A stretch of 64,000 nucleotides of DNA from an uncultured Gammaproteobacteria bacterium (GCA_964424615.1 CAYRIU010000033.1:247-64246), one strand, 5' to 3'. Positions 1,373-54,951 are shown, counted from the stretch's first letter. The notes: generated by a model from the letters alone, not told the origin. Numbers and translations are program-made.

Positions 1373-4321
1373 TAAGGTATCAATGACTGATTCCAAGTTT
1401 GTGAGTAAATTTTTAGTCAAATAATCAAATTCAATTTTTATTTGTAGATTTTGGTATAGCCAATGGGGATTTTTTTCTTGGAGTAAAGAAATATTTTTGA
1501 GATTTGGTTGTTTGATAAAATTGATTGTCAGCCAATGTTTTGTCTGACTTTTTTGATTGCTGATATTGATAATATCTTTGTTTTGGCAAAGTATTTTTAT
1601 TTTTTGTAAATGCCAGAGATTAGCAATATTTTTTTCAGCTGCTTGATGTATGTTGTTTTCAATTTTTTCTAAGCTCCGTTCTTGGCTAATTTTTTGGTAA
1701 AAAATTATTTTTTCAGCAATACTTTTTTTGAAGTCAGTTGGCAGACTAGTATCAATCGGTAATTTTATCTCTACATCGCGCCAGTATTTGACTGGCTGAC
1801 CTTTGATTTCGCGGATAGTTTCAGAGATGAGCTGTTGGTAGAGTCCGAGGCCTATGGTTTTTACTTTGCCAGATTGGGCTTGGCCCAAGATTTGTCCGAC
1901 GCCACGCAGCTCTAGATCTTTGTTGGCTACTTTGAAGCCTTCGCCCAAGTTACTAGCTTGCTTCAAGAAACCTAGTCTTTGGCTAGCTAGTTTTGGTAGT
2001 TTTTCTGAGCTATGCATGAAATAGGCGTAGGCTTGGCGGTCAGAGCGACCGATGCGTCCGCGTAGCTGATGTAGCTGTGATAGACCAAAGCGATTAGCTT
2101 TGTGGACTAGTAGGGTGTTGGCGCGTGGTATGTCTAGGCCATTGGCAATGATGGTCGAACACAATAAGACATCAATCTGTCCAGTATCAAAATCATGCAT
2201 GACTTGGGCTAATTTTTCGTCTTCCATTTGGCCATGAGCAATAGCTACTTTTATTTTTGGTAAGAGTTTGGTTAATTTTTTGTAAGCTAAATCAATAGTC
2301 TCTACTTGATTGTATAGGTAGTATACTTGACCTTGGCGAGCTAATTCTTGCTGTATAGCCTCCACTACAATTTGGTCATTTTCTTCGACTACTTTGGTGA
2401 TGATATTTTTGCGATCTTTGATTGGGTCATTGATCAGACTGATATCTTTGATCATAGATAGAGCCATGTTGAGAGTGCGGGGGATTGGTGTGGCAGTCAG
2501 TGTCAATAAATGTATATTAGCGCGATGTTTTTTGAGCTTTTCTTTGTCTTTGACACCAAAATTTTGCTCTTCGTCAATGATTAGTAGCTGTAATTTTGGA
2601 AAATTGATATCCCGTGATAGTAAGCGATGAGTGCCAATGATAATATCAGCTGTACCATCGCTGATGGCTGATAAATTTTTTTTTATTTCTTTTTCTTTTT
2701 GCCAACGAGTCATCAGCACTACTTTGACACCAGATTTTTCAAAACGACTGATAAAATTATCATAGTGTTGTTGAGCTAGAAGCGTAGTCGGACAGAGTAG
2801 GGCGACTTGGAAGCCATTGGCGACTACTCTGGCTGCTGCTCTCATTGCTACTTCAGTTTTGCCAAAGCCCACATCACCACAGACTAGGCGATCCGATGGA
2901 TATGGTCGACTGAGATCGTCCAAAGTTTCTGTGATAGCCTGGGCCTGAGAAGGAGTGAGAGTATAGGGAAAACTTTTAGCTATTTCTTCTTCTATTTTTT
3001 GTATTTTCAAAGCCGGACTTTTTTGTAATTTGCGGGTAGCCTCAACCAATAATAGCTGATTAGCTAGTTCCCAGGTTTGGTCTTTTATTTTTTTGAGGGT
3101 TTGGGGCCAGGTATTACCGACGGATAGCCTATGTATTTTTGGGTTAGCAGGACCTATGTATTTTTCTAGTTTGTCAGCTAGGTCCACTGGTACAAAGAGC
3201 GTGTCATTTTCAGCATAGGACAAGACAAAGTATTCGCGAGTCAGGCCGTCGACAGGCATCGTGGTCATTTCTTTGAGTAGAGCAATACCATGATCACGAT
3301 GGACTACCAAGTCACCGATAGTAAAGTCCGAACGAAATTCTTGGGCTACATAGTCAGTATTTTTGTCCTCAGCAAAAAACAAAGAATCATTGACTAGGAT
3401 TATTTGTTGTTTTTCAGCATAGATAGCTTGTGGCCAGCTCAAAGCTTGCTGCCAATCATAGAGCGAACACTGAATATTATTTTCTTTGATCAATTTTTGG
3501 GCTAGTGTTTTATTTTTAGTGAGCCAGATTATTTTTTCTCCTTTTTTCTGCTCTAAGAAGTAATAATAATTTTTTTGTTGACCTAATATATTATCAATTG
3601 ACTCAGTTTTGAAGTAATCTTTGCCCAAGGGGTCAAAAATAATTTGGTGGTTATTAATATTATTGTCTAGGGCAATATCTGTATCAGCTATCAGTAAAAC
3701 TTGCTCTGGCAAAGAAGTGATAAATTTTTCTTTGTGAAAGCTAGACTTTGGCCAAATATCCAGCTCATTTATTGGGTGTTCGGCATAGATTTGGTTGCTA
3801 GCAAAATAAACTATTTTTTCTATTTTATTTTCATCATAATTGAGACGAAATATTTTGTTGTCTTGGAAAATATCAACAATAGAGCCACGGATACTAAAAG
3901 TAAATTCTGTAAAAGCTTGGGAGTGTCGCTCAAAACCAATTTTTATCAAATCTTCAGTCAAAGTATGGAGATGATAGTATTCGTTGGTATGCAGAGTGAT
4001 TTTATTTTCATTGAGATCTGACCACTGTGGCGTCAGGCTATCGAGGTTGTTTTTGGTGGTCAAAACAATACTATCCTGAAGGCGATGGAGGGCGATGAGT
4101 GTTTCTAGGCTAGCATCGTCTGTATCTGGCCAAGCAATCACTTTTTTTTGATCAATATTTAATTCTTGAGACCAGAGTTTGAGTAAATCCAACCAAGTTT
4201 TTATTTCTTTATTATTTTCCAAAATACACAAAACCGCCCTATTTTCCTGAAAGAGGGGGGTGTGAAATAGAGCTAGACTAAGACTTGCACTATCTGCTGC
4301 TGTAGCAATGCGGACTTTCAC
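1370..4321 (-). CDS. mfd: transcription-repair coupling factor Mfd
   Basis: 983 aa. Superfamily-2 helicase motifs (GDVGFGKTEVAMRAA, DEEQNFGV, HGQM...) and TRCF-like C-terminus. About 150 aa shorter at the N-terminus than E. coli Mfd. Confidence 0.9.
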   Translation of the reverse strand: MKVRIATAADSASLSLALFHTPLFQENRAVLCILENNKEIKTWLDLLKLWSQELNIDQKKVIAWPDTDDASLETLIALHRLQDSIVLTTKNNLDSLTPQWSDLNENKITLHTNEYYHLHTLTEDLIKIGFERHSQAFTEFTFSIRGSIVDIFQDNKIFRLNYDENKIEKIVYFASNQIYAEHPINELDIWPKSSFHKEKFITSLPEQVLLIADTDIALDNNINNHQIIFDPLGKDYFKTESIDNILGQQKNYYYFLEQKKGEKIIWLTKNKTLAQKLIKENNIQCSLYDWQQALSWPQAIYAEKQQIILVNDSLFFAEDKNTDYVAQEFRSDFTIGDLVVHRDHGIALLKEMTTMPVDGLTREYFVLSYAENDTLFVPVDLADKLEKYIGPANPKIHRLSVGNTWPQTLKKIKDQTWELANQLLLVEATRKLQKSPALKIQKIEEEIAKSFPYTLTPSQAQAITETLDDLSRPYPSDRLVCGDVGFGKTEVAMRAAARVVANGFQVALLCPTTLLAQQHYDNFISRFEKSGVKVVLMTRWQKEKEIKKNLSAISDGTADIIIGTHRLLSRDINFPKLQLLIIDEEQNFGVKDKEKLKKHRANIHLLTLTATPIPRTLNMALSMIKDISLINDPIKDRKNIITKVVEENDQIVVEAIQQELARQGQVYYLYNQVETIDLAYKKLTKLLPKIKVAIAHGQMEDEKLAQVMHDFDTGQIDVLLCSTIIANGLDIPRANTLLVHKANRFGLSQLHQLRGRIGRSDRQAYAYFMHSSEKLPKLASQRLGFLKQASNLGEGFKVANKDLELRGVGQILGQAQSGKVKTIGLGLYQQLISETIREIKGQPVKYWRDVEIKLPIDTSLPTDFKKSIAEKIIFYQKISQERSLEKIENNIHQAAEKNIANLWHLQKIKILCQNKDIINISNQKSQTKHWLTINFIKQPNLKNISLLQEKNPHWLYQNLQIKIEFDYLTKNLLTNLESVIDTL

Positions 4322-42920: not shown

Positions 42921-42972
42921 GAATGGATTATTGACAAAAATCTAAGGTTTGCTAACATATTTTAGCTATAGT

Positions 42973-43052
42973 CCCACTGTAGCTTAGCCGATGAAAGCAC
43001 CCAGGTAATAAGAGCTGGGAGATCGTAGGTTCAAATCCTACCAGTGGGACCA
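42973..43052 (+). tRNA. tRNA-like gene with encoded CCA and a non-canonical 10-nt anticodon loop (identity undetermined; could be an unusual tRNA or a pseudogene)
   Basis: Acceptor CCCACUG/CAGUGGG. D-arm GCUU-AGCCGAUGA-AAGC. Anticodon stem CCCAG/CUGGG enclosing GUAAUAAGAG. Variable AGAUC. T-arm GUAGG-UUCAAAU-CCUAC, discriminator A, CCA. Own promoter TTGACA (42931)-16-TAACAT and terminator at 43086. Confidence 0.55.
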
Positions 43053-43085
43053 AGTTCTTTCGTGGCCATTTGGCCAAATTAACGA

Positions 43086-43117
43086 CCCCGCTATCAATTT
43101 TGATGGCGGGTTTTTTG
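43086..43117 (+). terminator. intrinsic terminator after tRNA-like gene 1
   Basis: CCCGCTATCAA-TTT-TGATGGCGGG then T6. Confidence 0.6.
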
Positions 43118-43187
43118 TATTTATTTCTGTGCATAAGTATATTATTGACAAAACTATTGCTGGTGCTATTATTTTCTTCTACAGACT

Positions 43188-43294
43188 AACCCCGTAGCTC
43201 AACTCGATAGAGCAGTAGGTCATCCACGAGTGCCTACTACGGGCGCTGATAAAAAAGTGCCCGTGTGGTGGTTCGAATCCACCCGGGGTTCCCA
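43188..43294 (+). tRNA. tRNA-like gene (104 nt plus CCA) with 13-nt anticodon loop and about 29-nt variable region (identity undetermined)
   Basis: Acceptor AACCCCG/CGGGGUU. D-arm GCUC-AACUCGAUA-GAGC. Anticodon-position hairpin GUAGG-UCAUCCACGAGUG-CCUAC. Long variable arm ACGGGC-N14-GCCCGU. T-arm GGUGG-UUCGAAU-CCACC, discriminator C, CCA. Own promoter TTGACA (43145)-16-TATTAT and terminators at 43305-43359. Confidence 0.5.
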
Positions 43295-43304
43295 GTTCTT
43301 TCCG

Positions 43305-43359
43305 GGGCGCTTATGCGCCCCTCGGCCCAGGCCGTTATCAACATTGATAACGGTTTTTT
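43305..43359 (+). terminator. tandem hairpins and terminator after tRNA-like gene 2
   Basis: GGGGCGC-TTAT-GCGCCCC followed by GGCCGTTATCAA-CA-TTGATAACGG and T6. Confidence 0.6.
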
Positions 43360-43436
43360 ATACTTTGTCTATTCGACTAAAATACCAAAAAATTCTATAT
43401 TTATATTGCGGACGGCTTAAATAATAAGACGGCGTT

Positions 43437-44825
43437 ATGACATTAGACACTTTAATTTTATTAGTTGTTTGGTTGATTAATTTAGGTTTATTATTTTTTA
43501 TACTTTTTAATAAGAATAAAAAAAGACGTTGGCCTATCTTTACGATGGTTTTTTTGTTGTGGCTCTGGCAGAGTAGTGAGCTGGTTAATATTTTATTTTT
43601 ACTCAAAAGTCCTTATATACTATTAGGAGTCAGAGCTGGATTGTTGCCAACCTTGTATATTGCGCCAACTTTTGTTGTCTTAAGCTATTCTTTAGTTCAT
43701 CAATGGAACAATGTCCGCAAGTGGCAACATCTTTTTTTCCTGCCAGCTTATCTGATGTCACCTTTTGTTTTTAGTAAATACAATGTCAGTAATATCATAG
43801 TCGGTCCGAGTAGTGTCTCTTATGAGCCAGGGCCGATTTATTTTGTTTTTGCTATTTATTTTATCACTTTGATGTCTTGGGGTTTGGTAGTGTTGATTCG
43901 TCAGCGTAGTCGCTACGATCAGATAGTCAAGACACAGATTGATTATATTTTTGTAGCCACTGCTCTGACAGCAGCTTTGGCTCTTTTGTTTATTTTTATC
44001 TTGCCACTCTTGGGCGTGACAGCTTTTTACTACATGGGGGTCAATAGTAGTGTCATCTTTACGGGCATTGTCACCTATGCTTTGTTTCGTTATCGCTTCT
44101 TGGATTTGAGAATCAGTTTTTACAAAACTTTGGTCAATTTTGTGCGCTTGCTTTTGACGGGCTTGGTCTACGCTGTGCTTTATGTGGTATTGATTGGTCC
44201 AGTGCAAGTAGATTTTTCCGATACCATAAATAGTATTTTGTTTTTGGTATTTTTTGGTTTGACTGCACCGCTAGTCTTTGGTCTAGCTAGCTCGGCTGCT
44301 AAATTTTTTATTTATCATCCTTTGGAGCGTATCTTTCAAGCCGAAAATAATATTGCCACGATCTTGCGCTCTAGTCGCGATCTCAATCGCCTGATGTCCT
44401 CTCTGTCCAAGGAGATTGCCCAAGTGATTGATTACAAGGAAATATTTATTTATCTAGCCAAGCGTGGTGATGCTAATTTTTTTCATCAAGTTTATCCAGT
44501 CGGGGAGAGGACATTGCACATGGAGCATGATGTTTTGTTGCAGTATCTAGCCAAAAAACAAGATTTATTGCATAGTGCGGAGGTGCATTATCTTGATATT
44601 GATTCGAAGCTTAGCCAAGAGTTAGTAGATCATCATATTGACATATCTTTCCCAATATACTATAATAATCAGCTTTTGGGAGTATTGATGCTAGATAATA
44701 ATAAAAAGCTCCTTTATCAGCAACAGTTGGATTTTTTGCGAGAAGTAAATAAATATTTAGATATTGCTATTGGTAGTCTTCTGCTTTATCAGCAGGCCAT
44801 GGCCAATAGGGAAGAAAATAAGTAA
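43437..44825 (+). CDS. 7TM sensor-domain protein (histidine-kinase-type 7TM N-terminal region) with C-terminal GAF-like domain, no kinase domain
   Basis: Seven predicted TM helices in the first about 290 aa, with similarity to the N-terminus of the HK at 51938; C-terminal 170 aa looks GAF-like. Confidence 0.5.
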   Translation: MTLDTLILLVVWLINLGLLFFILFNKNKKRRWPIFTMVFLLWLWQSSELVNILFLLKSPYILLGVRAGLLPTLYIAPTFVVLSYSLVHQWNNVRKWQHLFFLPAYLMSPFVFSKYNVSNIIVGPSSVSYEPGPIYFVFAIYFITLMSWGLVVLIRQRSRYDQIVKTQIDYIFVATALTAALALLFIFILPLLGVTAFYYMGVNSSVIFTGIVTYALFRYRFLDLRISFYKTLVNFVRLLLTGLVYAVLYVVLIGPVQVDFSDTINSILFLVFFGLTAPLVFGLASSAAKFFIYHPLERIFQAENNIATILRSSRDLNRLMSSLSKEIAQVIDYKEIFIYLAKRGDANFFHQVYPVGERTLHMEHDVLLQYLAKKQDLLHSAEVHYLDIDSKLSQELVDHHIDISFPIYYNNQLLGVLMLDNNKKLLYQQQLDFLREVNKYLDIAIGSLLLYQQAMANREENK

Positions 44826-44833
44826 TTAAATCT

Positions 44834-45529
44834 ATGATTTTTACAGATTCTCAAAATTTAATATTATTAATTGCGGCTTTGATTAATTTATCGATGAGTT
44901 TATTTATTTTTAGCAGAGGAGCAAAAAATAAGGTAAATTTCTACTTTGGTTTAGTGACTTTGTTTAATTTTTTCTGGGCTACCTGTCTAATAGTTATTAA
45001 TTCAGCGATTAGCTATGAACTTACAAGGTTTTTTGGTAGCTTTGTCTACCCAATAGCTTTGATGGTAGTAATTAGCTTATTTTATTTTTCTATTTATTTT
45101 CCTTATGAATCTTTTAGGGTGAATAAAATTTATAAATGGTTAATTAATTTTTCTATAATTTTTTATTCTATTTACTGTAGTTTATTCTATAAATTTTTTG
45201 TCCCTAAAGTCGATTTACTGCCAAAGGTGATTGTTTATTATGAACCAGTAGTTTACACAATTTTTAGTGTCATTTTGATTACACTGATGTTATTTGCTAT
45301 CCATATTATATACAAGAAATATAAAATAGCCACGGGCATATTTAGAGTACAATTGATGTTGATATTAATTGCTGTTATTATTGGCACGGCAGCTGGTTGT
45401 TATTTCAATTTGATAGCCATGTATTATAACAATTTAGCTTATAATCACTTAGGTCCACTATTTACTTTGTTTATTAATTTAGTAGTATTTGGTTTCATTA
45501 TTTCTTCTAGAGAAAAAATAAGTAATTAA
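44834..45529 (+). CDS. standalone 7TM sensor-domain paralog 1 (HisKA_7TM-like)
   Basis: 231 aa, about 7 TM helices; N-terminus and C-terminal SREKISN tail conserved with the next two genes. Confidence 0.55.
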   Translation: MIFTDSQNLILLIAALINLSMSLFIFSRGAKNKVNFYFGLVTLFNFFWATCLIVINSAISYELTRFFGSFVYPIALMVVISLFYFSIYFPYESFRVNKIYKWLINFSIIFYSIYCSLFYKFFVPKVDLLPKVIVYYEPVVYTIFSVILITLMLFAIHIIYKKYKIATGIFRVQLMLILIAVIIGTAAGCYFNLIAMYYNNLAYNHLGPLFTLFINLVVFGFIISSREKISN

Positions 45530-45533
45530 ATAT

Positions 45534-46232
45534 ATGATTTTATTCGCTTGGCAAAATATTGTATTAATTATTACTGGTTTGGTTAATCTAGTCATGGGCA
45601 TTTTTGTATTAAAAAGAGGCTTGAGGAGTAAAATTAATTTATATTTTTCTACTTTGGTATTTTTTAATTTTTTGTGGAGTATTTTTATAGTGGGGGCTTT
45701 TTCATCTAATAATCTATCGATGGTTAATTTTTTTGATAAAACAACTAATTTATTTGGCATTGGTATTATTTTATCATTATTTTACTTTACTTTATATTTT
45801 CCATATCAGTCAGATAAAATAAGCAGTTTTAAGACAAAATTAATTTGGTTTTCTTCAATAGTTATTTCTTTTATGATTTACACCAAATGGTTTGTCGTTA
45901 ATACTATTTGGGTTGCAAGGCCATTTAGTTATATTTCATATTATAATAAATACGGTTATTTTGTTTATACCTTATATTTTTTTGTTTTTGCGTGCTGGTC
46001 AATATACTTTTTATTTAAAAAATATAGGAAAGTAGAAGGAGTTACTAGGTTGCAGTTAAAACGATTAATGTTATCAATTGTGGTGGGTTTGATTTGTGGA
46101 GCTTACTTTAATTTAGTATTGAACTACCTCGGTGTTTTTAATCTTGGTTGGCTTGGGCCGTTTTTTACCTTATTTATGAATATAGTAGTTTTTCAAACTA
46201 TTAGATCACCTAAAGAAAAAATAAGTAATTAG
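45534..46232 (+). CDS. standalone 7TM sensor-domain paralog 2
   Basis: 232 aa; same architecture; ends SPKEKISN; intergenic junction AAAATAAGTAATTAAATATATG conserved. Confidence 0.55.
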   Translation: MILFAWQNIVLIITGLVNLVMGIFVLKRGLRSKINLYFSTLVFFNFLWSIFIVGAFSSNNLSMVNFFDKTTNLFGIGIILSLFYFTLYFPYQSDKISSFKTKLIWFSSIVISFMIYTKWFVVNTIWVARPFSYISYYNKYGYFVYTLYFFVFACWSIYFLFKKYRKVEGVTRLQLKRLMLSIVVGLICGAYFNLVLNYLGVFNLGWLGPFFTLFMNIVVFQTIRSPKEKISN

Positions 46233-46236
46233 ATAT

Positions 46237-46935
46237 ATGAGTATTTTTTCAACACAAAATTTTATTTTATTGGTTGCTGCTTTTGTAAATTTATTTATGA
46301 CATTTTTTGTCTTTAGACGTGGCATCAAAAATAAAATAAATTTATATTTTGGATTGTTAACCTTTTTTAATTTTACTTGGAGTTTAGGATTGTTAATTTC
46401 TAGATCCATTGAGAATATTAGTTTGGTAGCTATAGTAGCTAGAAGTACTTATATTTCAGCTTTAGCTATAGTTATTTTTTTATTTTACTTTGTTCACCAT
46501 TTTCCCTATCAGGCGGAAAAATTAAAAATTTATACTCATATTTTCATTTTATTTCCGGCTATTATTTTATCGTTTATAGTTTATACAAAATTTTTTATTC
46601 TTGATACAGTTAGAGCTTATAGTAATTTAGAGTACATATCTTATTACAATAAGTCTGGTTTTTTTCTTTATGCTATTTATTTTGTTATTATAGCTATTTT
46701 AGCTTTAAAGAAGTTATTTAAAAAATATAATTTATCAGAAGGTTTATTAAAACAGCAAATAAAAATGTTATTAGTCTCTATCATAATTGGTTTATTATTT
46801 GGTAGTTATTTTGATTTGTTTATCCAATATTTTAATGATTATAGATTTAATTGGCTGGGTCCTATATTTACCGTATTAATGAATTTTATTGTTTTCTTTT
46901 TTGTTATTTCCCCTAAAGAAAAAATCAATGGTTAA
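46237..46935 (+). CDS. standalone 7TM sensor-domain paralog 3
   Basis: 232 aa; same architecture; ends SPKEKING. Confidence 0.55.
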   Translation: MSIFSTQNFILLVAAFVNLFMTFFVFRRGIKNKINLYFGLLTFFNFTWSLGLLISRSIENISLVAIVARSTYISALAIVIFLFYFVHHFPYQAEKLKIYTHIFILFPAIILSFIVYTKFFILDTVRAYSNLEYISYYNKSGFFLYAIYFVIIAILALKKLFKKYNLSEGLLKQQIKMLLVSIIIGLLFGSYFDLFIQYFNDYRFNWLGPIFTVLMNFIVFFFVISPKEKING

Positions 46936-51937: not shown

Positions 51938-54757
51938 ATGCAACAGCTATTTGCAATATCTGGTTTAGTAAATTTTGCAGTTTCCATTGTAATTAGTTTT
52001 TTTGTTTTCATAAAAAAAAGAAATAATTCTAATATTTTATTTTCAATATTGACTTTTAGCACGGCCGTTTGGTCTTTTGGCTATTGGAGGTGGTTATCAG
52101 TAGTGGATAATCATGAAACAGCAATATTTTGGCTGAAATTTTTAACATTAGGCTCAATATGGATTCCAATTTTATTTACACACTGGATCTCTAGTTTATT
52201 TAATAAAATTATTGCAAAAAAAGTTAATTTTTTTGTTTTGGCATTAGCCTATTCTTTGGGAGTTTTTTTTAGCGTCATTAATTTTTTATCTGATTTAATG
52301 GTCGGTGGAGTTGAGGAAAAAATGGGCTTTATTTTTTGGCCAAACGCTGGATCATTTTATATCTTTTATATAATATTCGTTTATTTTGCATTAACTCTGT
52401 ATACGGGGTTATTATTAACAAAATATTACAAAAAATCTACAGGTGCTTTAAAGAATCAAATAAAATATGTTAGCATTGGTTGCTTAATCGCCCTATTGGG
52501 CGGAGTGTTTAATTTTTTTCTTTGGTATGATATAAACATTCCTCCTTATGGCAACCTCATAATTCCTGTGTATCCAGTGTTGATTTCGTATGCCATAGTC
52601 AAGTTTAGGTTGATGGATATCAGAATGGTTATTACTAGGAGTATCTTGTATGGTTTCCTTGTAGTCATAGTAGCTGCCTTTTTTGCTGGTTCAGTTTTTT
52701 TAACCAGTACTTACTTAGAAACTGAAAATAAATACACTACTATACTTTTATATATTTCTGCTTCCGCAGTTGTGGTTATTTTTCTAGATCCAGTCAAAAA
52801 TATTTTTGCTCGTCTCACTGATAAAATTTTTTATAAAGATAGAATTGATTATCAAAAGCTTTTACAACGAGCCAGTTCTGTAGTAGCCAAAGAAATTGAT
52901 TTAGAAAAATTATCTTTTTCTTTATGTAATTTATTAAATGAAGAATTAAAAGTCAAAGTTGTTTCAGCTATTATAGCTAAAAAAGATGAGTGGAGCTTGA
53001 TTGCTAGTTCTGATAACAATCATCGTCATTTAAAACTTAGTGATACTTTCATAAAATTTATTCAGGAGAGACATGATTTTATAGTAGTGGAGGAATTGAT
53101 TAGTAGTCAAAATGATATTAATACCGATGTTCCATATTATGAAACCTTGAATCAATTCATACAAGAAGCAGAGAGTCAAAAAGTAGAGATGATAGTTCCA
53201 GTACTGGGTGACAATGGTCAATTGACTTCTATTTTTTTGTTGAGTGCCAAAAATTCTGGTGATCTATATGGACAGGATGATATTAATTTTTTCAAAGTTT
53301 TGTCTCCCCAGATTGGTACAGCCATAGAAAAATCTAAGCTATACGAAGAAGTCCAAGAGTTCAATCGTGAATTGCAGGCCAAAGTTGATGCCAGAACCAA
53401 GAGTTTGAAAGAGGCTAATCTTGGTTTACAACAGCGTAATAAATTTTTGACAGCCATGCAGGCTGTCACCAATATGGTTAGTCGTACTATGGACTTGAAG
53501 CAAGTCAACCAAATGATTGTGAATAGCATATCTTTGGAGCTGGGCTATATTGGTGGTATTTTGAGTTTTGTAGATGATAAAAATCAAGTTTTACGCATCA
53601 GTTCTATCACAGAAAATGAACAGAGTGAAGAGGTGATCAAGATTTTGGGGCAAGATCCCAAAAATTTTGAAGCGGAAATGAAGATGCGTGATTTGTTGGG
53701 TGTCAAGACTGTCATGTCTGGTCAGATGAACACCTCTGATAAGATGTCCGATTTTTTTTCACCACCAGTAGAAAAAAACTTGATTGATCAGGTGCAAACA
53801 AAATTAGGTGTCAAAACTATCGTTGGTTTGCCAATTTTTTCTGAAGATAAAATCATTGGTATTATACATTTTTTACTCGCTGTAGAAAAAAAAGATGTCA
53901 GCTCTCTGGATACTGACATCATGATCGCTCTGGCTGACCAGGTGGGTATCGTGTCTAGAAACTTACGCTTGTATAACAATCTACAAGCTACCAACCAAGA
54001 CTTGCAGGTAGCTAATATGCGCTTGCGTGAGCTAGATCAGGCTAAGTCTGAATTTTTATCGATTGCTTCTCATCAGTTGCGTACGCCAATTTCTGCTCTC
54101 AAGGGTTATTTATCTATGATTCCTGATGGAGATTTTGGTACTGTACCACCAAAAATTGGTAAAGTAGTCAAAGATCTTTTTGAAAGTGCCGCTCGCTTAG
54201 CTAGATTGGTCAATATATTTTTGAATGTTTCACGTATTGAGTCTGGTCGACTGAAGATAGAAAAGAAACCTCTACAGATTGGCGATATGATTGAGAGTGT
54301 CATATCTGAGCTACACAATGAGTCAGATAAGAAAGGTGTGAAGTTGATTTACAAAAAGCCAAAACCAGCTTTGCCACTCGTAGCGGCTGACTCTGATAAG
54401 CTACGTGAAGTAGTCTTGAACTTGATTGACAACTCTATCAAATACACGCCAAAAGGTCAGATAGAGATCAGCGCCACAGTAGAAAATGACAATATGCACT
54501 TCAAGGTGCAAGATACTGGTATTGGTATAGATCCAGAAGAAGCCAAAAATTTATTTAGAAAATTTGTGCGTGCTAGTGGAGCGGCTCAGGTGCACACTGG
54601 TGGTTCTGGTTTAGGTTTATTCATCGCTCAGAAGATCATCAAAGAGCACGGTGGTCAAATATGGGTAGAGAGCGCTGGTAAAGAGCAGGGGAGCACTTTT
54701 CAATTTTTGATACCCATGAATGGCGGTGAGCCCAATAAAGAGGAGATGCAGTCCTAA
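51938..54757 (+). CDS. sensor histidine kinase: 7TM N-terminal sensor, GAF domains, HisKA and HATPase_c
   Basis: N-terminal 7TM region homologous to the 43437-46935 genes; H-box ASHQLRTPISALKG; N, G1, G2 boxes (DTGIGI..., GGSGLGL). No response regulator adjacent. Confidence 0.85.
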   Translation: MQQLFAISGLVNFAVSIVISFFVFIKKRNNSNILFSILTFSTAVWSFGYWRWLSVVDNHETAIFWLKFLTLGSIWIPILFTHWISSLFNKIIAKKVNFFVLALAYSLGVFFSVINFLSDLMVGGVEEKMGFIFWPNAGSFYIFYIIFVYFALTLYTGLLLTKYYKKSTGALKNQIKYVSIGCLIALLGGVFNFFLWYDINIPPYGNLIIPVYPVLISYAIVKFRLMDIRMVITRSILYGFLVVIVAAFFAGSVFLTSTYLETENKYTTILLYISASAVVVIFLDPVKNIFARLTDKIFYKDRIDYQKLLQRASSVVAKEIDLEKLSFSLCNLLNEELKVKVVSAIIAKKDEWSLIASSDNNHRHLKLSDTFIKFIQERHDFIVVEELISSQNDINTDVPYYETLNQFIQEAESQKVEMIVPVLGDNGQLTSIFLLSAKNSGDLYGQDDINFFKVLSPQIGTAIEKSKLYEEVQEFNRELQAKVDARTKSLKEANLGLQQRNKFLTAMQAVTNMVSRTMDLKQVNQMIVNSISLELGYIGGILSFVDDKNQVLRISSITENEQSEEVIKILGQDPKNFEAEMKMRDLLGVKTVMSGQMNTSDKMSDFFSPPVEKNLIDQVQTKLGVKTIVGLPIFSEDKIIGIIHFLLAVEKKDVSSLDTDIMIALADQVGIVSRNLRLYNNLQATNQDLQVANMRLRELDQAKSEFLSIASHQLRTPISALKGYLSMIPDGDFGTVPPKIGKVVKDLFESAARLARLVNIFLNVSRIESGRLKIEKKPLQIGDMIESVISELHNESDKKGVKLIYKKPKPALPLVAADSDKLREVVLNLIDNSIKYTPKGQIEISATVENDNMHFKVQDTGIGIDPEEAKNLFRKFVRASGAAQVHTGGSGLGLFIAQKIIKEHGGQIWVESAGKEQGSTFQFLIPMNGGEPNKEEMQS

Positions 54758-54818: not shown

Positions 54819-54951
54819 TTTGAGCTATAATGAAAGTGTTGACATGGACGGCTATAATTCTATAGACGGCTAGTATTATTTGATTAATGTTCCCTTTGTT
54901 TGTTATTTGTTATATTATTATAGACATAATAGATATTAATCAAATTAAAAG

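Follow-up and report, generated by a model that had tools for sequence, protein, structure and literature searches.

A tRNA-shaped, apparently non-decoding RNA with strongly constrained helices at a cassette locus of Komeilibacteria-like Patescibacteria

Introduction

Look-alikes of tRNA that do not serve translation have previously been known from scattered cases, namely tRNAOther, the allo-tRNA-like genes and the Y RNAs. The allo-tRNA-like tRNAs of soil metagenomes play no part in translation, are found clustered and do not conserve their anticodon (Mukai et al., PMC5389517; PMC7609411). The tRNAOther of Bacillus cereus is tRNA-derived and non-translational, and at its variable locus it has taken on a different role (PMC3399842). 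YrlA ends in a Ro-binding stem, has an acceptor-like stem that is closed by a loop and is encoded beside rsr (PMC4201824). Literature searches on CPR/Patescibacteria for tRNA-like RNAs or for anticodon loops of unusual form returned nothing relevant. Here we describe a tRNA-like RNA gene, unit 2, that is the second of two tandem tRNA-like genes and had been noticed in an original prediction made by a model from the sequence alone.

Results

The analyzed DNA, hereafter the window, is a stretch of 64,000 nt. The genes flanking the locus are housekeeping genes (S2, RF1, TadA, PSP1, GAPDH, CysRS, MetRS, KsgA and a histidine kinase), accompanied by four tandem HisKA_7TM paralogues, and in relatives EF-Ts lies upstream of the same gene block. 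The CysRS is 92-78% identical to Patescibacteria MAG proteins, and those relatives that have a name belong to Komeilibacteria, Parcubacteria and similar groups. Because the flanks are housekeeping genes and the CysRS matches Patescibacteria MAGs, the window is a Komeilibacteria-like Patescibacteria (CPR) chromosome and not a phage or plasmid. A phage origin of unit 2 was rejected: a blastn search against 50,697 phage records gave no match, exact 25-26-mers of unit 2 were absent from IMG/VR, and the 39 viral loci with a generic T-arm...CCA-GTTCTT pattern were all ordinary tRNAs (at most 48 bits with model R1). The 3' half of unit 2 gave 0 matches in a JGI metagenome scan, and a protein-based scan with the downstream gene found 4 loci, with unit 2 in 0 of the 4.

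Several further features were observed in these surroundings. The four HisKA_7TM paralogues occupy 43437-46935 and 51938-54757; the first carries a GAF domain, none has a kinase domain, and a full HisKA_7TM-GAF-HisKA-HATPase kinase is present 5 kb downstream. The direct repeat GGACGGCU-N10-11-AGACGGC occurs twice in the window (43411-43433 and 54847-54870; 0 expected), once in the 5' part of the HisKA_7TM-GAF gene and once upstream of ksgA. Its first copy is kept in relatives to 49% protein identity (L082-L084, L008), and the repeat may be an operator or an RNA motif. In the clade, the tRNA-His(GUG) next to hisS (L088 7994-8070) lacks G-1 and carries U73. At the equivalent locus, a Cys-Lys-UCA cluster of L083 includes a class I tRNA (2048-2122) with the anticodon UCA, C33 and U73.

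The features of unit 2 and its expression signals are given below. The acceptor, discriminator, D arm, 13-nt loop and T arm were read from the sequence and the anticodon-position arm from the five-orthologue alignment.

43145-43172, plus strand: promoter with −35 TTGACA, 16-nt spacer and TG-extended −10 TATTAT (11 of 12 matches)
43179-43187, plus strand: 5' leader of ~9 nt, its start placed from the −10 position, conserved as UCUAC(A/G)AGA
43188-43294, plus strand: unit 2, a tRNA-like body (104 nt) with encoded CCA, 107 nt in total
43188-43194 and 43284-43290, plus strand: acceptor stem AACCCCG/CGGGGUU, 7 bp
43197-43213, plus strand: D arm GCUC-AACUCGAUA-GAGC
43214-43238, plus strand: anticodon-position arm with the GUAGG/CCUAC helix
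43220-43232, plus strand: loop UCAUCCACGAGUG, 13 nt, inside GUAGG/CCUAC
43239-43266, plus strand: long variable arm with the 8-bp stem ACGGGCGC/GUGCCCGU, an A-rich 10-nt loop and GU with U48
43267-43283, plus strand: T arm GGUGG-UUCGAAU-CCACC
43291 and 43292-43294, plus strand: discriminator C (C73) and CCA
43295-43302, plus strand: conserved single-stranded trailer GUUCUUUC, a putative 3'-processing site
43304-43321, plus strand: GC-rich trailer hairpin GGGGCGC-UUAU-GCGCCCC, kept as a hairpin in relatives
43329-43356, plus strand: 12-bp stem of the intrinsic terminator, followed by a T-run to 43362

Read in order, unit 2 is AACCCCG-UA-GCUC-AACUCGAUA-GAGC-A-GUAGG-UCAUCCACGAGUG-CCUAC-UACGGGCGCUGAUAAAAAAGUGCCCGUGU-GGUGG-UUCGAAU-CCACC-CGGGGUU-C-CCA. 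The acceptor stem, the GUAGG/CCUAC helix with its 13-nt loop and the variable region of ~29 nt (UACGGGCGCUGAUAAAAAAGUGCCCGUGU) with a 6-bp stem were thus recovered where the original prediction had placed them. The 6-bp stem ACGGGC/GCCCGU can be extended to 8-9 bp, and the anticodon-position stem reaches 7 bp when A26-U44 and a U.G pair are added to GUAGG/CCUAC. The minimum free energy fold was a five-arm cloverleaf of −49.1 kcal/mol (z = −5.4), which 0 of 200 shuffles equalled. The bases for tertiary contacts are present (U8, A14, A15:U48, A21, G53:C61 and the UUCGAAU T loop). Of the arms that had been called canonical, the acceptor and T arms are so; the D arm is so only in part, since the window copy has CG in place of the universal G18G19, where relatives have GG. 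The loss of G18 in the window copy could reflect relaxed constraint in that particular genome.

Of the predictors to which the original prediction had pointed as a check, the Rfam models and ARAGORN were applied. In a local search the Rfam tRNA model (RF00005; gathering score 29 bits) matched unit 2 with 39.5 bits (E 8e-7) and aligned it from end to end, taking the 13-nt loop and a 26-nt hairpin as insertions. In the scan of the whole window unit 2 was dropped by the filters and unit 1 alone was listed (42973-43049, 55 bits), and neither of the two Rfam searches matched unit 2 to anything other than tRNA. ARAGORN labeled unit 2 as 'tRNA-Ser(act)' (43201-43292), a call that relies on a different fold with mismatched stems and was rejected as a mis-fold, and it called no gene in the orthologues L001 and L010. 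A protein-coding reading of the 64-aa GTG ORF at 43230-43424 was dropped because 1-nt indels separate the orthologues in both loops.

Unit 2 was present in five distinct sequences, the window copy and four from relatives, where it lies between cysS and the HisKA_7TM-GAF gene:

L001 4989-5097: unit 2 orthologue
L086 5516-5624: unit 2 orthologue, with a truncated copy in L087
L010 1335-1446: unit 2 orthologue, identical in L135
L085 5495-5607: unit 2 orthologue

Model R1 scored the window copy at 120.6 bits and the four relatives at 126-134 bits, and its search of 55 related loci and 39 viral loci returned only ordinary tRNAs, at 48 bits or less. All 31 base pairs of unit 2 form in all five sequences, and the 7/5 acceptor/T branch is likewise found in each of them. 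Among the paired columns 4 of 62 vary, each by a wobble-preserving transition (C-G/U-G or G-U/A-U), versus 18 of the 51 unpaired columns (Fisher p = 2e-4), and four-fold degenerate sites of cysS in the same genomes are 38-46% different. Because the stems are almost frozen compared with the unpaired columns and the cysS four-fold sites, all five helices, the two non-canonical ones among them, are under strong purifying selection, which speaks against the degenerate duplicate that had been suggested. Of the four stem changes, two bring the variable-arm stem up to 8 bp and another gives the anticodon-position stem a sixth pair. Pairs 7 and 8 of the variable arm change from G.U to A-U and from C-G to U.G, and the anticodon-position stem is invariant except for U.G versus C-G. 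Free drift of the noncanonical helices in relatives, which the original prediction had named as the contrary outcome, was not seen, as they are kept in all five sequences. Of the compensatory changes expected in these odd helices, wobble-preserving ones were found and doubly compensated pairs were not; since none of the five orthologues has a doubly compensated pair in either odd helix, the structural support consists of invariance and wobble changes, which in a sample of five does not contradict the structure.

The loop at the anticodon position was UCAUCCACGAGUG in the window, CCCUCACCAUAGUG in L001, CCCUUACCAUAGUG in L086, CCACACUCACAAGUG in L010 and CCACACUCAAAAGUG in L085. Its length changes in single-nucleotide steps, with 13, 14 or 15 nt on the 5-bp stem (11-13 nt above the extended stem), and most genome pairs differ at 5-7 of ~13 positions (1 for the two closest pairs). 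This is about the neutral rate, close to that of the cysS four-fold sites, and the divergence of the loop appears roughly neutral, drift and diversifying selection being indistinguishable here. A conserved U33, a purine 37 or a shared in-register triplet was absent among the five orthologues. UCA occurs in three copies of the loop, at different offsets, and the homologous place in L086 is UUA. No way of splitting the loop left a conserved 7-nt exon loop (residues 32-38) in the five orthologues. Because U33, R37, a triplet and an exon loop are all missing, a decoding tRNA, a quadruplet decoder and the intron-containing tRNA of the original prediction were excluded, and the alignment shows the loop to be devoid of the features of a decoding role. 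Being the least conserved part of unit 2, the loop is also a poor candidate for a base-pairing seed. A search of the window with the reverse complement of the loop at up to 2 mismatches gave no second site, and 8-13-mer loop complements had no recurrent site in five loci, the sole 9-mer, in the window, being within chance; complements of the unit 1 loop also occurred at chance level. The A-rich loop of the variable arm varies as well (GCUGAUAAAAAAGU, AUGAAUAAAAAAGU, ACGAAGCAAAAAAAGU; 10-13 nt), chiefly in the length of its A-run.

Judging from its conserved signals, unit 2 appears to be a separately transcribed RNA gene. Both promoter hexamers and a GTGCTA element are invariant in the five genomes. 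In the whole-cassette alignment the −35/−10 elements and the tRNA body were invariant, and the GUUCUUU trailer, the hairpin and the terminator were common to the orthologues. The stem of the trailer hairpin differs in relatives but pairs (GGGGGC/GCCCCC, AGGGGC/GCUCCU), and the terminator shows a compensatory change among them (CCGUUAUC/GAUAACGG versus CCGCUAUC/GAUAGCGG). The strong terminator that had been predicted is present as the 12-bp stem and T-run listed above. The promoter layout is also the same as that of the neighbor, as had been claimed (TTGACA-16-TATTAT in unit 2, TTGACA-16-TAACAT in unit 1), ATTATTGACAAAA is common to both units, and the shared context after the CCA was confirmed as GTTCTTTC, preceded by one extra A in unit 1. 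The trailer motif GUUCUUUC is found after unit 1 (43054-43061) and after other cassettes in relatives.

The features of unit 1 are:

42931-43116, plus strand: unit 1 cassette, comprising promoter, tRNA-like gene, trailer AGUUCUUUC, hairpin and terminator
42931-42958, plus strand: unit 1 promoter TTGACA-16-TAACAT
42973-43052, plus strand: unit 1 tRNA-like gene with the 10-nt loop GUAAUAAGAG

For unit 1 ARAGORN gave a tRNA of undetermined identity ('tRNA-???') and an anticodon of 4 bases. Relatives of unit 1 were found in L010 (15-nt loop), L133 (long stem and 10-nt loop) and L089 (normal Arg-like CUUCGGA), and in this group the cloverleaf is kept, with doubly compensated changes at 13 of 23 pairs and a loop of 7-16 nt. 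The odd helices and expression signals of unit 2 being conserved in relatives, and the cloverleaf of unit 1 being kept too, the earlier view that the two units point to function rather than decay is supported. It was further observed that the loops of unit 1 have GUAAU(A/C) in common in three genomes, that (G)GU of the 5' leader forms pairs with AC(C) at the 3' end, and that the 1:72 pair is often mismatched.

In L132 and L001 the promoter and the flanks from terminator to gene are identical and the cores are non-homologous, which argues for a recent cassette replacement; the core of L001 is unit 2, and that of L132 is an unrelated hairpin RNA with a degenerate tRNA-like gene. Between L001 4880-5262 and L132 2050-2503, ~150 nt of downstream flank is identical and a core of ~230 nt is replaced. 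Unit 2 is absent from L133, which has a unit 1 type gene only. Since it is replaced in L132 and absent in L133, unit 2 is accessory and exchangeable, and the alignments indicate strong constraint on it in every genome that carries it. The same place holds 8-nt-loop Arg-like genes without CCA in L004 and L091, a gene in L090 that has a 9-nt loop and resembles unit 2 in its T/acceptor region, and a tRNA-like gene with a 28-nt insertion (28-nt loop) in L008, the aberrant loops of sister genomes at the locus being 8, 9, 11 and 28 nt long. L002, L088 and L134 have a 7-nt-loop gene with the 'anticodon' GCU, GCU or GUU, its T arm being replaced in one genome, and other genomes of the clade have D-armless tRNA-like RNAs and other structured RNAs at this place. 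In several sister cassettes there is no CCA, or positions 1 and 72 are mismatched. Gene content is in flux at the locus: the window carries an abhydrolase, and relatives carry aminotransferase and EF-Tu-D2-like ORFs.

Other RNAs and elements were observed in the related loci. In a more distant relative (L006 13125-13200), an aberrant tRNA-like gene combines the D arm of unit 2 with a 9-nt loop; it follows a normal tRNA-Val and tRNA-Leu, has the leader GUUCUUCUCUACAGAA, and carries GUUCU directly 3' of the acceptor, with no CCA. A structured RNA of ~130-170 nt (L002 8600-8760, L088 6090-6235, L089 3530-3680, L090 3420-3560) had no match in Rfam and is absent from the window. Its long closing stem shows compensatory change (GGUGUUGG/CCAACACC versus GGUGCUGG/CCAGCACC), and it has the C/U-rich loop CUUUCUCCCUCCAAACCCCC and, in L002 and L088, a T-arm-like 3' hairpin. 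The D-armless tRNA-like RNA (L003 3465-3537, L089 3344-3413, L090 3235-3304) has the loop AUUCUAG (UAGCUAAA in L003) and a 3' end of AACA/AGCA, not NCCA, and a long-stem RNA with a UCCA end lies ahead of it in L003 and L089. The RNA island is followed by an ORF of ~103 aa (L089 3804-4115, L090 3685-3993, L004 5039-5353, L007 ~3976-4263) that has its own promoter, is GC-rich in L089/L090, shows sub-threshold similarity to EF-Tu domain 2 (E ~1e-3) and has no homologue in the window. A palindromic element, TTGACCCCATAAGCGACCC...GGGTCGCTACGGGGCGAGATGTGGTATTAG, resembling a promoter interrupted by a hairpin, lies between cassettes (L002 8455-8520, L010 1173-1230, L088 6362-6420, L134 197-262, L004 4655-4700, L083 1748-1812) and is absent from the window.

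Discussion

We consider it probable that unit 2 is an independently transcribed, non-decoding tRNA mimic from a lineage-specific family of exchangeable cassettes, and that it acts as a decoy or adaptor ligand of one or more tRNA-recognizing proteins outside decoding. Its tRNA fold is under selection and its decoding features are lost, which would fit the class of non-translational tRNA mimics or pseudo-tRNAs. A precursor of ~185 nt would run from the near-consensus sigma-70 promoter to the intrinsic terminator, both of which are conserved signals. By analogy with tRNA maturation, RNase P would cut before A1, an endonuclease would cut in the GUUCUUUC linker, and exonucleases would trim the 3' end to the encoded CCA. 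From the computed fold and selection, the 107-nt product is predicted to take up a tRNA L-shape with two elongated lower arms. Because the anticodon-position loop has no apparent decoding role, activity would be sited in the conserved body, i.e. the elbow, the acceptor/C73/CCA end, the variable-arm helix and the anticodon-position stem, and the RNA may be an abundant competitive ligand, decoy or adaptor, for at least one such protein. This reading is favored because unit 2 is accessory and rapidly exchanged, has a near-consensus promoter and fits no standard synthetase identity. To our knowledge, C73 with A1-U72 fits no standard bacterial synthetase identity set, and unit 2 is without G3:U70, without G73/A73 and without an anticodon. 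No partner protein is encoded beside it.

The encoded CCA and the invariance of the discriminator, acceptor stem and variable-arm stem would also suit a non-ribosomal aminoacyl carrier, charged by an anticodon-blind synthetase (e.g. SerRS via the long arm) and passing its amino acid to cell-wall, lipid or peptide synthesis. The enlarged loop would keep such an RNA off the ribosome and be free to drift, and a precedent is the non-proteinogenic tRNAGly of Staphylococcus (PMC7826273). A carrier is nonetheless unlikely, as CCA is lacking or the 1:72 pair mismatched in several sister cassettes, unit 2 is missing from the close relatives L132 and L133, and no Fem/MprF-type transferase was present in the scanned 28-61 kb. 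The identity features of tRNA-Ser are G73, G1-C72/G2-C71 and a 3-bp D stem; all are missing in unit 2, whereas the local tRNA-Ser of L026 has G73, and unit 2 offers neither G3:U70 to AlaRS nor A73 to LeuRS. A base-pairing sRNA, or a tRNA-like module in a larger regulatory transcript, whose loop or flanks pair with mRNA, seems quite unlikely. Its large single-stranded C/A-rich loops on a stable scaffold and its own promoter and terminator would serve such an RNA, a longer functional RNA is possible because the trailer and hairpin are conserved, and tRNAOther of B. cereus is a precedent (PMC3399842). The seeds of sRNAs, however, are normally their most conserved part, the opposite of the loop of unit 2, and the loci examined contain no recurrent complementary site beyond the chance 9-mer of the window.

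Still less probable is a non-functional relic, i.e. a tRNA gene inactivated by insertion, perhaps after integration of an island, and conserved via gene conversion or hitch-hiking. Unit 2 is dispensable, being absent in L132 and L133, its window copy has lost G18, tRNA genes are common integration sites and the locus shows gene-content flux; a genuine tRNA located elsewhere in the genome could also, through gene conversion, have contributed to conserving the acceptor, T and D arms. Yet the two non-tRNA helices have no conversion donor and are invariant despite the 38-46% four-fold divergence, all four stem changes keep pairing, and the promoter, trailer hairpin and terminator are maintained with compensatory changes. 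As the non-tRNA helices are frozen, a pseudogene is unlikely. A genuine decoding tRNA, with a small intron in the anticodon loop or with an expanded loop that reads quadruplet or longer codons, is very improbable. It would account for the full tRNA body and CCA, and it finds parallels in the 8-nt loops of the L004 and L091 cassettes and in known frameshift/reassignment tRNAs (PMC7609411). Against it, the five orthologues share no U33, purine 37 or triplet, loop length shifts by single nucleotides, and no split of the loop yields a conserved 7-nt exon loop. The extra 6-8 nt of the loop seem, moreover, too short for a group I intron core. The least probable reading of all is the Y RNA that had also been raised, a YrlA-like RNA tethering a Ro60 orthologue. 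Unit 2 does contain a tRNA-like module, and YrlA, too, is a mimic of the D, T and acceptor arms (PMC4201824). A Pfam scan of the genes across 28-61 kb found no Ro60/TROVE or RtcB, Rfam matched tRNA only, the acceptor is open with CCA, and a Ro-binding helix and the GNCGAAN0-1G motif are missing.

In unit 2 the body and the loop are set apart very cleanly by selection, the tRNA body and the two extra helices being frozen and the loop drifting at about the neutral rate. It is conceivable, though doubtful, that the clade keeps a locus of highly expressed tRNA-mimic cassettes that engage tRNA-recognizing factors through their conserved L-shaped bodies, with large, quickly changing loops that hold the RNAs off the ribosome or even tune their specificity, as an RNA-only conflict or adaptor system made of tRNA scaffolds. 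If so, the factor may be, e.g., a tRNA-targeting toxin or nuclease of phages, hosts or competitors, or part of an unconventional charging or transfer pathway. The known distribution of unit 2 is narrow, with five genomes of one clade. The locus would be an entry point to the roles of tRNA-shaped RNAs outside translation in reduced, symbiotic CPR bacteria, and the ARAGORN calls obtained here ('tRNA-Ser' and 'tRNA-???') put the reliability of automated tRNA counts in CPR genomes in question.

Comparison with known systems

The body of unit 2 agrees with that of a canonical elongator tRNA (RF00005), and the 7-nt loop, U33/R37 and a conserved anticodon are missing, so that this identity was rejected; an intron-containing tRNA was rejected since no exon loop residues are conserved in the five orthologues. 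Class II tRNAs and tRNA-Sec share with unit 2 the long helical variable arm, the L-shaped body and the CCA. The original prediction had set it apart from both, and rightly so. In class II terms (Ser/Leu/Tyr) the long arm is present, but G73/A73, the 3-bp D stem and the class II D loop are missing; unit 2 instead has C73, A1-U72, a 4-bp D arm of class I type with a class I D loop and an 8-bp variable stem, and no 7-nt loop. Its branch is 7/5 and not the 8/5 of tRNA-Sec, its D stem has 4 and not 6 bp, and UCA is not conserved (UUA in L086). A tmRNA was rejected as well: ARAGORN found none, position 3:70 is C3-G70 and not G3:U70, and the RNA is 107 nt long.

[quoted passage not shown] The non-proteinogenic tRNAGly of Staphylococcus resembles unit 2 as a case of tRNA genes diverted from the ribosome, and has a normal anticodon loop, GlyRS identity and a link to Fem transferases (PMC7826273), which unit 2 does not have.

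Closest to unit 2 are the irregular or allo-tRNA-like tRNAs (PMC5389517, PMC7609411) and tRNAOther (PMC3399842). With the former it shares a tRNA body, a long variable arm and possibly five-stem junctions. The allo-tRNAs have an 8/4 or 9/3 acceptor/T arrangement (12-bp branch) and 7-nt loops and often lie near toxin-antitoxin genes (PMC5389517), whereas unit 2, from Patescibacteria, has a 7/5 branch, an 11-15-nt loop, its own promoter and terminator and no toxin-antitoxin genes nearby; as 7/5 is found in five of five orthologues, allo-tRNA identity was rejected. The tRNAOther lies inside longer Fur-regulated transcripts and has a normal-sized loop (PMC3399842), and unit 2 is a compact stand-alone cassette. 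From both of these relatives unit 2 is set apart by its 8-bp variable stem with an A-rich loop, by its self-contained cassette and by its phylum.
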